DNA of 64,000 nt from NCBI GenBank assembly GCA_964559315.1, contig CAZLGL010000001.1:175183-239182 (forward strand), in the 5' to 3' direction. The translations under genes were made by a program, and so were the position numbers. Positions within the stretch are counted from its first letter, which is position 1. Each line of letters begins with the position of its first letter. This DNA is from an uncultured Coxiellaceae bacterium (GTDB taxonomy: Bacteria; Pseudomonadota; Gammaproteobacteria; DASZBR01). The notes below the pieces were generated by a model. The model made no database searches. It was not told the DNA's origin and saw only the letters and a program-made list of their open reading frames with translations. Below, in pieces: positions 13,376-30,510 of the stretch.

Positions 13376-13755
13376 CATTCAAAACCAAATAAGGAAGATG
13401 TTCGTCTGAAAATAGAGAGCTTATAGTGTATAACTTATGCCTTACTATGCTTCTTTTGGACAGGAAGATTAGGCACTATCATTCCAAAACTAGATACCCT
13501 TAAGATTAATCCAATTAAAGACGGAGAAACCCACGCCATTGTTTTTTGGCTAAGATTAAATACTGGAACCGAATTTAAAAAGGAGAATTTAATATGCTTC
13601 ACATTATTTTAGACACCTGCTGAGTTTGCAGCAAAAACAACCGCCTGCTTAAGCTGATTTGCAATGAGGTGTTTCCGGGGGAGGGCCAACTTAAGCTGAT
13701 TTCTCTACTTTTGCAATGAGGTATTTCAGGGAAAGGGTCAGCGCCGTATCCTTCG

Positions 13756-14150
13756 TGGCCTCCGACATTCCATATCCACCATTCGGCATTAATTTTTGTT
13801 GTAACACATATCCTATTCCTTCCGAACCCATCTGCTCTAATACTTCTTTCAAACTAAAATGACTCCTTTTGACTAACGCCATTAAAACTAACTATTGCGC
13901 AACATCTATCGCTCCCGCTTTCATCATCGAATCGACCAAATCACCACCTGGGTGCAATTTAGAATATTCTGCAAATGCCAATTCTACTGACATTTGCACC
14001 ACTTCTCGCCAACTGAAACTGTCTCGCATTCCCGCTTCGTATTCTATGCCTTGTTTTGCAGCATCCAATATTGCACCCGATGCGCTTGCCCCTCCAGTCG
14101 CCCCTTGTGCGATACTCTCAGAAGTATCATCGTTCTTCGCTTGGAGAAAT
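13756..14150 (-). pseudogene. Degraded duplicate of an internal segment of the RHS protein's C-terminal region (orphan rhs-tip-like fragment). It lies downstream of the main rhs gene.
   Basis: About 320 bp are near-identical to 16100-16420 of the main gene, then the match resumes against about 16730-16800 (roughly a 300-bp deletion relative to the gene). The 63-aa ORF 13691..13882 (MALVKRSHFSLKEVLEQMGSEGIGYVLQQKLMPNGG...) matches MALVKGSHFSLKEVLEQMGSAGIGYALQQKLMPNNG in the 4301-aa protein. The frame is broken elsewhere. Confidence 0.7.
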
Positions 14151-27697: not shown

Positions 27698-30510
27698 GAC
27701 GGAGTTCCTTCTGAATTAAAAAAGTTATAAGTAGATTTAGACATTCGATAGATAAGATAGACTGCCAATAAAAGTAAAATTGCGCCGGGAATAATAGCTG
27801 ACAAACCAACTGCACTTGCTGCCATATTATTTGTATCACTATTTACACTTCGTGCTGGTGCCCCACCGCCTAATTGCGGTTGAATATTAGGATTACTGTA
27901 AAATTGAGACGAACTATTTGTTCTAAACGTAAAATCTCTTCCAGACAACACTTGCTCTGCTGCGCGAATAGTGGGTCTTTCAATAGCAGTACGTTGCAAA
28001 CTCACTTCTTTTAATTTCACAATTAATTTTGCATTTCGAAGCGCGCGTGCTTCATAACGCCCCACTTGTTCTTGGCCAATCGTATTAGCCTCTTCTGTAG
28101 GCTCAACCAATGATTGAACCAGTGGCACACCACCTGCATCAGTAATCCCAGGATTACTATCAAACACAACTCTTTCAAGACCTGACCGTGGTAATGTTTT
28201 TGCTAAAACCGTTACACTGGCATCTGTTAATTGATTTAAATTAACATCTAAAACTACAACACCTGTATTCGGAAGTGCTGTTGCGAATGCAATAAGAAAC
28301 GGATCTTGTAAATTGTTATTTCCCAGAATTAATGATTTAAACGTAGAGCCAGGTAAAACACCCACTAATTTAATTCCTGCATCTGTATTTAAACTTGTAG
28401 AGGTTAAATCTAATTTTTCAAGAAAAACTTTATTTTGCATCAACATATTCACAACATCAGGGCCAATGGGATTATAAGAAGAATCGATTGATTTTACTTT
28501 GCCGCTCTGCCCTAATAACTTGATACTTTCAGGTGTAATGGCTGTATTTCCCAATCCCAAATGGTTAAGCGCTGTTTCAGGTAGAAATCCAATGCTGCTA
28601 GTTACGCCATCGTCATCGATCGCATTCCCATAAAGATCAATTTCCGTGACAGTTGTATTTCGACAATTTTGCACGGCACTAAACAAACCAACATTCGTCA
28701 ATCCATTATTGCGCAATTTCCATTTTTTCATTTTTTTACTTTGTACACTTGTTAAATCATTAACCTGGTCATCTACTAATTGTGTACCTGAAAAGTCTGC
28801 TTCCTCCATATTTGATTGGGCAAAACCTTCAGCAACCGGTTTCATATCAGTGCCTTGGAAATTATTATTGGCAACTTTTATCTTTTTCATTGTTCCCGGT
28901 AGTTGTTGAGAAATCGAAGTAATACCTTGTCCTGTCATACCCACATCTGATACATCCATATCTTCAACTTTACTATTTTGTAAACCCGTGAGACCAGTAT
29001 CACCTAATAATGTATGGGGAGCACTAAAACGAGTAACTCCCGTAGCATTTAAAGGAGTAGGAACTGCTTGAACATTATTCCCACCCATTTCTATTTCTTT
29101 TAATTGAGCAACAACTGCCTCCCATATTTCTTCAAAACCGGTTTGCCCAATTCCTTGATTGATTCCCGAGAAACTTATGGTTGTAACATTATGTAAAAAT
29201 TCCACAACATCATCGAGTCGACCATCATCGGGAAATGAAGAATACTGAATAGGAGAAGAGATATTAAATCCCTCTAAAGACTTAATATTAGCTGATACTT
29301 TAGATAATAACGCTCTAAGTTTCAAACGAGGCCAATCACGCCAATTTTGTCTAGAAAGATCTAAGTTGCCAAAAGGATGTTTTAATAATTCATCAATATT
29401 TTCAAGAATAAAATCGGGAACTCGGGCATAGGCAAGTAATCCATCTAGGGCTTGTTGGCTAGTAAATTTTTGATAATCAGCTAAATATCCAGCATTGGTT
29501 ACAACACATTCAAAATTTCCCCAATCATTTAAATATGCCCACAGTTTATTTTGATCATGGCAATCTGTTTCTGCCGCTAAAAATTGCACAAATCCTATAA
29601 ATTTTAAAATACATAATTCAATAAATCGTAAATCCGCATATTGCACACCTAAAATAATTAACCAGAAAGGCATATCTTTCCAACTAATAGGAGCAGTACC
29701 TGCTTTCCATTGAATAAAATTTCGATAGACAGAAGATTGCAAAAGCAGTTTTTCGTGAAATGCTTTTAACTCCGGTTTGAAGCGTTCTCTAAATCTTGGC
29801 CACGTCCATAGTCCTCCACCGGTTGCAATTCCCGAACCAATTAATACAGCGGGACCGTAATACATCACCACATCACCTGCAACGTCACTTCCCCAAATCG
29901 AAGTAATCGTAACTGCATTATCAGCAACGCCCCCCATTATTCTTCCAAACGAAACTCCATAAAGAGGATTAGCTAATGCTAGACCCGGAAATAAATCCCA
30001 TAAAAAGAATGACCAAAAAATCGGAGCCCATATTTGATTCGCAACGAAGGAAGATCCTGCAACAAAGTGTCTGAAATTTTTCCACTCAGTTTTTGCTAAA
30101 CGAAAAGGAAAATCGGTATTGTGATCTTGTAGATCTTTGGCCATCCAATGAACAAAACGATGATAATATTCATTGGCTTTTTGAGCACGACTCATTACAA
30201 CAACATCTTGATCTTCGTGTTCTTGTCGTTGTTCTTCTAAATCATCTACAGCTTGAATCGATGTGGATGACGCAGATGGTCCGGCCACTGGTATAAGCCG
30301 TGCTCGCTCACCTTCTTCGCCACTGCCTTCATCGACTTTTTCAAATGGAGAAAAATCAACGACTCTATCACCATCTCTTGTATGTATGTGTTCATCTTCA
30401 GAGGGTTTAGTTCCTAAACCTGATGGAGGTAAAGGTTGTGCAGGTGCTGCTTGATATCCAAGTCGCACCTTCTGTAATTCAATATCTCTTTCTCTTTGCT
30501 CATCTTCCAC
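27685..30510 (-). CDS. Membrane protein (941 aa): acidic N-terminus, a cluster of hydrophobic helices, ribonuclease-inhibitor-type leucine-rich repeats, and a C-terminal TM anchor. It overlaps the rhs start by 13 nt.
   Basis: Hydrophobic region FVAGSSFVANQIWAPIFWSFFLWDLFPGLALANPL...AVLIGSGIATGGGLW. RI-like LRRs (IDLYGNAIDDDGVTSSIGFL...LGLGNTAITPESIKLLG...LDLTSTSLNTDAGIKLVGVL...LDVNLNQLTDASVTVLAKTL). C-terminal AASAVGLSAIIPGAILLLLAVYLIY. Confidence 0.55.
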   Translation of the reverse strand: MEDEQRERDIELQKVRLGYQAAPAQPLPPSGLGTKPSEDEHIHTRDGDRVVDFSPFEKVDEGSGEEGERARLIPVAGPSASSTSIQAVDDLEEQRQEHEDQDVVVMSRAQKANEYYHRFVHWMAKDLQDHNTDFPFRLAKTEWKNFRHFVAGSSFVANQIWAPIFWSFFLWDLFPGLALANPLYGVSFGRIMGGVADNAVTITSIWGSDVAGDVVMYYGPAVLIGSGIATGGGLWTWPRFRERFKPELKAFHEKLLLQSSVYRNFIQWKAGTAPISWKDMPFWLIILGVQYADLRFIELCILKFIGFVQFLAAETDCHDQNKLWAYLNDWGNFECVVTNAGYLADYQKFTSQQALDGLLAYARVPDFILENIDELLKHPFGNLDLSRQNWRDWPRLKLRALLSKVSANIKSLEGFNISSPIQYSSFPDDGRLDDVVEFLHNVTTISFSGINQGIGQTGFEEIWEAVVAQLKEIEMGGNNVQAVPTPLNATGVTRFSAPHTLLGDTGLTGLQNSKVEDMDVSDVGMTGQGITSISQQLPGTMKKIKVANNNFQGTDMKPVAEGFAQSNMEEADFSGTQLVDDQVNDLTSVQSKKMKKWKLRNNGLTNVGLFSAVQNCRNTTVTEIDLYGNAIDDDGVTSSIGFLPETALNHLGLGNTAITPESIKLLGQSGKVKSIDSSYNPIGPDVVNMLMQNKVFLEKLDLTSTSLNTDAGIKLVGVLPGSTFKSLILGNNNLQDPFLIAFATALPNTGVVVLDVNLNQLTDASVTVLAKTLPRSGLERVVFDSNPGITDAGGVPLVQSLVEPTEEANTIGQEQVGRYEARALRNAKLIVKLKEVSLQRTAIERPTIRAAEQVLSGRDFTFRTNSSSQFYSNPNIQPQLGGGAPARSVNSDTNNMAASAVGLSAIIPGAILLLLAVYLIYRMSKSTYNFFNSEGTPSCKK

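Follow-up and report, generated by a model that had tools for sequence, protein, structure and literature searches.

The stretch of DNA analyzed here, 64,000 nucleotides (nt) of contig CAZLGL010000001.1 from an uncultured Coxiellaceae bacterium (assembly GCA_964559315.1) and referred to below as the window, carries on its minus strand three overlapping genes encoding a leucine-rich repeat (LRR) membrane protein of 941 amino acids (aa), a giant RHS protein of 4301 aa and a small open reading frame (ORF) of 97 aa. The stop of the LRR gene overlaps the start of the RHS gene by 13 nt (tcATGCAAGAAGTAAcc), and the stop of the RHS gene overlaps the start of the 97-aa ORF in an ATGA arrangement. Both overlaps were read directly from the sequence, and the coordinates and tight coupling of the three genes given in a first-pass annotation of this DNA stand as reported. 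A decayed fragment of the RHS gene lies downstream. Taken together, a body that is conserved up to nested breakpoints, a tip that can be exchanged, a small gene next to it and a fragment displaced downstream constitute the signature of a polymorphic toxin, and we consider it likely that the locus is a three-gene polymorphic-toxin operon (LRR partner, RHS toxin, immunity gene) accompanied by a relic of recombination. The nearest relatives of the source organism are gammaproteobacterial metagenome-assembled genomes (MAGs). All features are listed in Table 1.

Profile searches bore out the initial description of the two large proteins, as RHS_repeat, LysM and LRR_6 were all matched. Pfam RHS_repeat (PF05593) matches the RHS protein at 3e-27 and is recovered in each of its first five 478-aa pieces, as far as about aa 2100, and NCBIfam TIGR01643 (YD_repeat_2x) is recognized above its cut-off at 1.6e-7. 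The shell begins at the very N-terminus (..PNLVTGNLVFQDR..LRFTYNS..), which aligns straight onto the first conserved shell strands in four homologues and shows a weak PDB sequence match to Tse5. This first YD block is followed by a middle region (aa ~2150-2900) that lacks YD motifs and gave no family match when searched in pieces against Pfam, and that is conserved collinearly in loci L012 and L015. Within the second YD-like block, aa 2959-3155 weakly match the Photorhabdus Rhs structure 7q97. The LysM domain scores 20.9 bits on the whole protein, which equals the gathering cut-off of 20.9 bits, and 23.9 bits on a 478-aa piece; it is the best-conserved stretch among homologues (70-75% identity), and both of these homologues (P0001 and P0002, introduced below) are annotated with LysM. 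Next comes a hydrophobic, Gly/Ala-rich and helical pre-toxin region with its hydropathy maximum at aa 3718-3746. RHS homologues of 4329-4347 aa are collinear with the window protein at 29-61% identity.

The RHS protein qualifies as a polymorphic toxin, yet it stands apart from canonical Rhs proteins in lacking two of their defining features, the Rhs core and an N-terminal trafficking domain. No match to the Rhs-associated core (TIGR03696) was obtained at E ≤ 1, either with the whole protein or with pieces covering aa 1-2000 and 2868-4301, in a search in which a positive control (P0011) scored 1.2e-17. Regular expressions for a DPxGL-type or GRF...DP motif found neither in the protein, so that the DPxGL-type core end by which the toxin was to have been delimited does not exist here. 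Likewise, Pfam and NCBIfam searches revealed no PAAR, prePAAR, VgrG-linked, SpvB/Tc or signal-peptide features. The proposal that the RHS gene was acquired separately, based on a higher GC content, did not hold up: the gene has 39.1% GC versus 36.9% for the window, yet its GC content at third codon positions (0.298) falls within the range of its neighbors (0.23-0.345), and the higher overall value is therefore attributed to amino-acid composition.

The last 969 aa of the RHS protein have relatives in only two of 5.8 billion proteins, P0001 from the Joint Genome Institute (JGI) and P0002 from a MAG designated 'Gammaproteobacteria bacterium'. Alignment of the three family members showed that, besides the LysM block and the hydrophobic region, they have in common a conserved junction, ARHGIY...DDPTIDNFDPN (LGLPDDPTIDNFDPN), with 65-78% identity. 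It is the last block that all three have in common and precedes a first breakpoint at about aa 4053, past which identity to P0002 drops to 7-15%. A second pre-toxin block (..ASLPIDA..LDAGRNYVGSFF..) is shared with P0001 only, and beyond a second breakpoint at about aa 4173 identity to P0001 falls to about 10% as well. The tips of the three proteins are mutually unrelated, and each is followed directly by a different small ORF. The exchangeable tip comprises just ~130 aa, or ~250 aa when measured against one homologue, instead of the final 850 aa to which the toxin had been assigned at first. A likeness of the P0001 tip to an ADP-ribosyl cyclase was considered and dropped, as Pfam gave no support for it.

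Using the last 261 aa of the RHS protein joined to the 97-aa protein as a query, 17 proteins were retrieved, every one of which matched the last ~125 aa. The toxin domain of these homologues is always C-terminal and is borne by mutually unrelated carriers. These carriers include a protein with a canonical Rhs core (P0011, the control mentioned above), an Hcp/TssD fusion (P0013) encoded between the ClpV, TssF and TssE genes of a type VI secretion system (T6SS) cluster (locus L008), and a protein from an Aquirickettsiella MAG (P0006), the tip of which is 63% identical and represents the closest homologue. Invariant residues, in RHS protein numbering, are E4233, E4234, F, L, H4237, G, T and Q4240 (EEFLHGTQ), followed by G4244, E4255, V4258, K4259, F4261 and M4262; R4264, H4265, a Lys and several Leu/Ala positions are nearly invariant. 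The tip and the 97-aa protein match no Pfam family and have no PDB sequence match; a match to formate dehydrogenase with an E-value of 0.1 was set aside as a short chance similarity. An AlphaFold2 model of the tip reached a predicted local distance difference test (pLDDT) score of 84.6 and returned weak fold matches. Its elements follow the order strand, ExxH helix and, 18 residues on, a Glu helix, which resembles the order in gluzincins with the first His replaced by Glu. A zincin-like EExxH...E site is offered as a tentative and rather doubtful hypothesis. The domain with the EEFLHGTQ motif would form, together with the 97-aa protein, a new toxin/immunity pair common to canonical Rhs and Hcp effectors. 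A literature search found no description of an EEFLHGTQ domain.

The 97-aa ORF is 51% identical (BLASTP, 3e-29) to a 99-aa ORF located directly after the Aquirickettsiella toxin homologue. Because its homologue thus follows the closest homologue of the toxin, and in line with its position, we regard it as the putative cognate immunity gene, the product of which is predicted to neutralize the tip. A 94-aa ORF following the Hcp-toxin fusion shows weak similarity to it as well (E 0.008). Variation of the C-terminus among homologues and co-conservation of the small ORF with the tip agree with the rhs toxin/immunity layout recognized in the first-pass annotation. Further along the Aquirickettsiella locus (L007 of MAG GCA_036495935.1), positions 1809-5164 hold no fewer than three arrayed orphan toxin modules, which differ in their tips but share a pre-toxin region (..NPSGFWQRAWNSVEDVFEHRALIAEGRAA..). 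After two of them comes a DUF6966 protein, presumably the immunity protein.

The duplicate noted downstream of the operon proved to be as degraded as described. Positions 13758-14077 are 91.6% identical to 16101-16420 over 320 nt without gaps, and 14104-14137 are 82% identical to 16759-16792, the two segments together implying a deletion of about 312 bp. The fragment corresponds to aa ~3760-3866 of the RHS protein and covers the end of the LysM domain and the hydrophobic region. It contains an in-frame stop, loses similarity after 'MSEA' and includes neither a toxin tip nor an immunity gene, and it is thus a pseudogenized internal piece of the RHS gene. Equivalent fragments, 93% and 79% identical to the main genes, are present downstream of the immunity genes in loci L001 and L002, and L007 has its whole array of orphans, which is consistent with the suggestion that the duplicate is a relic of recombination.

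The LRR protein matches Pfam LRR_6 at 4e-9, and its AlphaFold2 model (pLDDT 80) comprises a disordered acidic N-terminus, hydrophobic helices, a β-hairpin, a horseshoe of the ribonuclease inhibitor type and a terminal transmembrane helix with a basic tail. Foldseek aligned this model with ribonuclease inhibitor and NLRP LRRs (E-values of 1e-13 to 1e-14; TM-score, normalized to the target, at most 0.67). The assignment of ribonuclease-inhibitor-type LRRs is thereby confirmed. A topology with the N-terminus inside, the LRR domain outside and the C-terminus inside is predicted, because eight Lys/Arg residues are found in the loop formed by residues 238-269 and because the C-terminal tail is basic.

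An exhaustive HMMER search with the part of the N-terminal domain outside the LRRs (aa 100-470), for which Pfam has no family, yielded 108 representatives of clusters defined at 50% identity, mostly 850-1400 aa long. LRR_6 repeats were detected in 38 of the 43 members scanned, most of which share one layout: a hydrophobic N-terminal domain, a four-Cys motif, LRRs and a C-terminal transmembrane helix. The four Cys residues are conserved in 39 of these 43 relatives, and two of them were lost together in the clade of the window protein. This pattern fits two disulfides in an extracytoplasmic domain, with the loss read as one event in evolution. The 5.8-billion-protein collection contains the LRR protein of the source genome at 100% identity, as an annotated NCBI protein (P0003). 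The 4301-aa RHS and 97-aa proteins are not in that collection; in the public record their genes may lack annotation or be flagged as pseudogenes. A second protein of the LRR family (P0024, 982 aa), encoded on a 270,882-base NCBI contig, has an N-terminal domain 41% identical to that of the window protein and a C-terminus (..SSCKTLPHTHTRQ) like that of the paralogue in locus L006, and it may belong to a second LRR-RHS pair of the source genome or of a close relative.

The pairing of the LRR membrane protein with an RHS protein, first noted in the window alone, recurs in other genomes, down to 30% identity of the LRR protein. A gene of the LRR family lies immediately before a giant RHS gene and overlaps it not only in the window but also in five further loci (L003, L004, L006, L012/L013 and L014); the L014 pair is also found on a 195-kb JGI contig. 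The genes for two LRR relatives, P0004 (63% identical) and P0005 (55%), both run 13 nt into an RHS gene downstream, as in the window, and those for two more distant family members, P0131 (32%) and P0026 (34%), overlap RHS genes of 4347 and 4329 aa, respectively. Among the genomes of the GTDB collection, a single one contains a relative of the LRR protein, the MAG bins.196, which holds both L003 and the paralogous pair L006. This paralogous pair likewise has a stop/start overlap; compared with the window proteins, identity amounts to 30% for its LRR protein and 43-45% for its RHS N-terminus. The two partners diverge together, as LRR identities of 63, 55 and 30% are accompanied by RHS N-terminal identities of 83, 75 and 45%. 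The RHS protein of L012 is collinear with that of the window over 3300 aa at 29% identity.

Moreover, a single 5214-aa chain, P0050 (locus L015), combines the transmembrane/Cys domain and the LRRs, by in-frame fusion, with an RHS body that has a LysM domain, a hydrophobic region, a junction and a further, different tip; a 105-aa ORF comes next. A frameshift artefact was considered as the origin of the fusion and rejected, as none of the reading frames where the LRR and RHS parts join encodes a transmembrane helix. Adjacency, co-divergence and fusion argue for physical cooperation of the LRR and RHS proteins. The LRR protein would accordingly be a dedicated partner of the RHS protein, its family adjoining giant RHS genes in all loci examined. 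Only in the window and in L015 were the LRR gene and the toxin tip recovered on one contig. Locus L001 was considered as the 3' end of the L003 gene and discarded as the sequences differ, and the same LRR protein with a differing tip is therefore not argued. Scans of metagenome DNA with C-terminal and N-terminal RHS alignments found nothing further, and a literature search found no description of LRR-RHS pairing or of RHS proteins in Legionellales.

The junction between the two genes was compared between the window (27685-27715) and the equivalent positions in L003, L004, L006 and L014. The LRR protein ends in an invariant peptide, SEGTPSCKK, and the bases encoding it also hold AAGGA, which is Shine-Dalgarno-like, and the RHS start ATG CAA GA(A/C). 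Conservation of the peptide is in part explained by this dual coding.

A mechanism can be outlined as follows. The LRR protein would be a four-helix inner-membrane protein with its horseshoe outside the cytoplasm, synthesized in step with the RHS protein through translational coupling and serving as its membrane anchor or as its export or targeting partner, on a route that would make no use of PAAR, VgrG or the Rhs core. The YD repeats would form one or two shells carrying or enclosing the C-terminal region. LysM could dock onto peptidoglycan and the hydrophobic helices could aid passage of the tip through the membrane. The tip would act as a hydrolase, possibly of zincin-like type, and the 97-aa protein would block it both in producing cells and in their siblings. 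New tips may be gained by homologous recombination in the conserved pre-toxin region, leaving behind fragments such as that at 13758-14137. We tentatively put forward, as a possibility still short of an even chance, that the LRR protein and the LysM-bearing RHS protein make up an undescribed delivery system of Gram-negative, probably host-associated gammaproteobacteria, independent of both the T6SS and the Rhs core, in which the LRR protein exports or anchors the toxin, LysM and the helices mediate entry into the target cell and the tip represents a new EEFLHGTQ toxin family.

Several points weigh against the operon and mechanism as outlined. The secretion step is putative, and the signal-less RHS protein would have to meet an LRR domain predicted to lie outside the cytoplasm. 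The prediction of that topology in turn draws on hydropathy and the positive-inside rule, together with a Cys pattern traceable to one evolutionary event. The P0050 fusion is known from one metagenomic contig. The canonical autoproteolytic Rhs core is absent from the RHS protein, in which no motif supports release of the tip from the shell. Furthermore, a T6SS could be encoded elsewhere in the genome, and the eukaryote-like effectors in the window fit a host-associated lifestyle, in which a host target is possible.

As to the target, we favor neighboring bacteria with moderate confidence. Polymorphic tips, an immunity gene and orphan relics form a signature of conflict among related bacteria; the same tip/immunity pair occurs in an Hcp effector within a T6SS cluster; and the RHS protein bears LysM. 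Host-directed toxins of intracellular bacteria, moreover, typically lack immunity genes (Zhang et al. 2012, PMC3482391), and the window locus has one. For these reasons it seems unlikely to us that the system is aimed at a eukaryotic host, amoeba or other, with the LRR protein tail-anchored in a host membrane or bound to a host receptor, the RHS shell delivering the tip to the cytosol in the way of Tc and teneurin-like YD-shells, and the immunity protein serving only to shield the producer against its toxin in the cytosol. Nor was a TcA-like translocator or a type IV secretion system (T4SS) signal identified. Such a system would nevertheless suit a window rich in OTU, F-box-type LRR, LRR-ankyrin-kinase and tetratricopeptide repeat (TPR)-Fic proteins, a Dot/Icm gene (DotI/IcmL) near one family member and a toxin whose closest homologue comes from Aquirickettsiella, an intracellular member of the Legionellales. 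Likewise, the LRR domain resembles the cytosolic ribonuclease inhibitor and NLRP LRRs of eukaryotes, tail-anchored proteins of eukaryotes are also built with a C-terminal transmembrane helix and a short basic tail, and LysM is able to bind chitin besides peptidoglycan.

The T6SS linkage of the toxin domain elsewhere could also mean that the RHS protein is a canonical effector fired by a T6SS encoded outside the 64 kb visible here, with the LRR protein as an accessory adaptor or chaperone comparable to Eag or Tap/Tec, and the Gram-negative Rhs toxins that have been studied are mostly T6SS cargo. We regard this as distinctly unlikely: the protein has no PAAR, prePAAR, VgrG-binding or MIX/FIX domain, its shell starting at residue 1; at 4301 aa it is about three times as long as the solved T6SS Rhs chains that it weakly matches (1121-1426 aa); the Rhs core on which the known cycle of encapsulation and cleavage depends is missing; and none of the retrieved LRR-RHS loci contains a T6SS gene. 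Known T6SS adaptors, in addition, are small soluble proteins, unlike a polytopic membrane protein of some 940 aa. Finally, the LRR protein might be protective, a membrane-bound relative of ribonuclease inhibitor that sequesters the RHS protein or its tip in the envelope of the producer, either as a second, generic layer of immunity or as an Imm-LRR protein. LRRs of this type are high-affinity enzyme inhibitors, and Imm-LRR proteins exist in polymorphic toxin systems (PMC3482391). Protection of this kind is nonetheless highly improbable, as the tip already has a small cognate immunity ORF behind it, the Hcp locus L008 combines the toxin domain with a small immunity gene in the absence of any LRR gene, the divergence of the LRR protein parallels that of the RHS body, and in P0050 the LRRs are fused to the RHS N-terminus and not to the tip.

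Known systems resemble the proposed LRR-RHS system in part. With the T6SS Rhs proteins (Rhs of E. coli, Serratia and Salmonella, Tse5 of P. aeruginosa and Photorhabdus Rhs1, 7q97) the window protein shares YD/RHS repeats and a body that stays conserved while the C-terminal toxin varies; in both, the immunity gene comes directly downstream, and displaced fragments are found downstream as well. It differs from them in lacking a PAAR- or VgrG-linked N-terminus, the Rhs core and the DPxGL autoprotease, in being about three times longer and in carrying in addition LysM, a hydrophobic region and a new junction, while an LRR membrane protein takes the place of the VgrG/Eag neighbors. WapA of Gram-positive bacteria is likewise a T6SS-independent RHS carrier with a cell-wall-binding module, a polymorphic tip and an immunity gene, but possesses a signal peptide, N-terminal wall-binding repeats and an Rhs core, whereas the window protein has no signal peptide, carries LysM C-terminal to its repeats and has gammaproteobacterial relatives. 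A very large YD shell with a variable C-terminal payload and independence of the T6SS are also features of the TcB-TcC cocoon of Tc toxins, and the first YD block (~2100 aa) is comparable in size to TcB and TcC together. However, Pfam revealed no SpvB, TcdB-mid-N or β-propeller domain in the RHS protein or its neighbors and no TcA gene, the Rhs core is absent, and Tc loci lack the immunity gene that the window locus has.

Teneurins and teneurin-like proteins link a YD shell to a membrane anchor and end in a toxin-like domain, and P0050 unites transmembrane segments, LRRs and a YD shell in one chain, with a faint precomputed Pfam match to TEN_YD-shell. In the window, on the other hand, the anchor is encoded by a gene of its own, no NHL, FN-plug or EGF module was detected, and the tip is exchangeable and followed by an immunity gene. 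The order of partner, giant carrier and immunity gene, a demarcation motif before the tip and downstream orphan modules recall the CdiB/CdiA/CdiI operons. There, the partner is an Omp85/TpsB barrel as opposed to a predicted helical inner-membrane LRR protein, and the carrier has FHA instead of YD repeats; no VENN motif was seen on reading the window translation. Large LysM-bearing polymorphic toxins with differing C-terminal toxin/antidote modules occur in a host-associated member of the Rickettsiales, an endosymbiont of Peranema (Gillespie et al. 2024, PMC11077975). That paper also mentions the use of Rhs/CDI by intracellular bacteria, and the text consulted describes no RHS body or LRR partner for these toxins.

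Nearly all Gram-negative Rhs toxins studied so far are T6SS cargo or Tc toxins, both reliant on the Rhs core autoprotease. The LRR-RHS family keeps the logic of polymorphic toxins without this core or any known trafficking domain, and it always travels with a polytopic membrane protein bearing LRRs of the ribonuclease inhibitor type. A self-contained LRR-RHS delivery route, if it exists, would be a new way to deploy RHS shells, would provide a function for a sizeable metagenomic family of 'RanGAP-like' LRR proteins and would add to the evidence that bacteria equipped with eukaryote-like effector sets also fight related bacteria.

Table 1. Features of the LRR-RHS locus and of its surroundings in the window.
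Feature	Position (nt)	Strand	Residues (aa)	Basis or remark
LRR membrane protein, putative partner (GTG start)	27685-30510	minus	941	ORF, Pfam LRR_6, AlphaFold2, Foldseek
LRR protein, disordered acidic N-terminus			1-108	AlphaFold2
LRR protein, hydrophobic helices			144-178, 214-236, 277-319 (model); ~150-178, 214-236, 281-311 (hydrophobic)	AlphaFold2, hydropathy
LRR protein, basic segment			238-269	8 Lys/Arg; charge analysis
LRR protein, β-hairpin with C317 and C335				AlphaFold2
LRR protein, ribonuclease-inhibitor-type horseshoe			~380-865	Alternating strand/helix units; AlphaFold2
LRR protein, terminal transmembrane helix and basic tail			906-932 (modeled helix); ~896-922 (transmembrane helix)	AlphaFold2, hydropathy
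Giant RHS/YD-repeat protein, predicted polymorphic toxin	14792-27697	minus	4301	ORF, Pfam, NCBIfam
RHS protein, first YD/RHS-repeat block	21248-27697	minus	1 to ~2150	Pfam pieces 1-5, TIGR01643, motif counts
RHS protein, middle region without YD motifs	18998-21247	minus	~2150-2900	Motif counts, Pfam pieces
RHS protein, second YD-like block	17708-18997	minus	~2900-3330	PDB sequence match, motif counts
RHS protein, LysM domain	16661-16795	minus	3635-3679	Pfam PF01476
RHS protein, hydrophobic Gly/Ala-rich helical pre-toxin region	15818-16555	minus	~3715-3960	Hydropathy, alignment
RHS protein, conserved junction	15578-15694	minus	4002-4040	Alignment of three family members
RHS protein, second pre-toxin block	15182-15421	minus	4093-4172	Alignment; common to P0001 only
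RHS protein, predicted exchangeable toxin domain	14795-15181	minus	4173-4301	17 homologues, AlphaFold2 model
Putative cognate immunity gene	14502-14795	minus	97	ATGA overlap; conserved next to closest toxin homologue
Decayed orphan fragment of RHS pre-toxin region	13758-14137	minus		Nucleotide match to RHS gene
Regulatory block upstream of operon	33701-38525			Includes two single-domain response regulators
PAS-histidine-kinase-receiver hybrid	36888-38525			Regulatory block
Helix-turn-helix (HTH) protein	36224-36898			Regulatory block
Single-domain response regulator	35174-35581	minus		Possibly operon-associated
Protein with N-terminal transmembrane helix	34470-35135	minus	221	Possibly operon-associated
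Protein	33701-34435	minus	244	Possibly operon-associated
S26 TraF-like peptidase	46078-46590			Conjugative/T4SS set
VirD4/TraG coupling protein	50440-52212			Conjugative/T4SS set
MobA-type relaxase-helicase	54978-57854			Conjugative/T4SS set
TrbI/VirB10	62602-63711			Conjugative/T4SS set
OTU cysteine protease	6520-10161		1213	Eukaryote-like domain
Plant F-box-associated-type LRR protein	11118-13172		684	Eukaryote-like domain
LRR, ankyrin and Ser/Thr-Tyr kinase protein	46623-48380		585	Eukaryote-like domains
TPR and Fic protein	60533-62242		569	Eukaryote-like domains

Upstream of the operon lies a regulatory block, homologues of which (58-72% identity) are found directly upstream of both LRR-RHS pairs of bins.196 (L003 and L006). 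In the window, three extra ORFs (30799-33667) separate this block from the LRR gene. The genes for the response regulator at 35174-35581 and for the 221-aa and 244-aa proteins have no counterparts upstream of the pairs in the distant loci L012 and L014, and the latter two proteins match no Pfam family. As noted previously, the window contains no T6SS genes, none being found among its scanned ORFs of at least 150 aa. Conjugative/T4SS genes are present at 46078-63711, and the RHS operon may for that reason sit on or beside an integrative conjugative element or a plasmid-like region. Domains of the OTU, F-box LRR, ankyrin-kinase and Fic types, as encoded by four ORFs of the window, are typical of the effector repertoires of host-associated bacteria.

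Two repeats were observed in minus-strand ORFs outside the operon, neither of which matches a Pfam family. Between the TraG and relaxase genes, a region at 53060-53630, within a 639-aa ORF (52920-54839), consists of a 117-nt tandem repeat (4.9 copies, 87% matches); it has a very pronounced AT skew (-0.48) and ORFs in several frames. At 4639-4968, within an 891-aa ORF (3386-6061), a 168-nt unit is present twice, with 93% matches.

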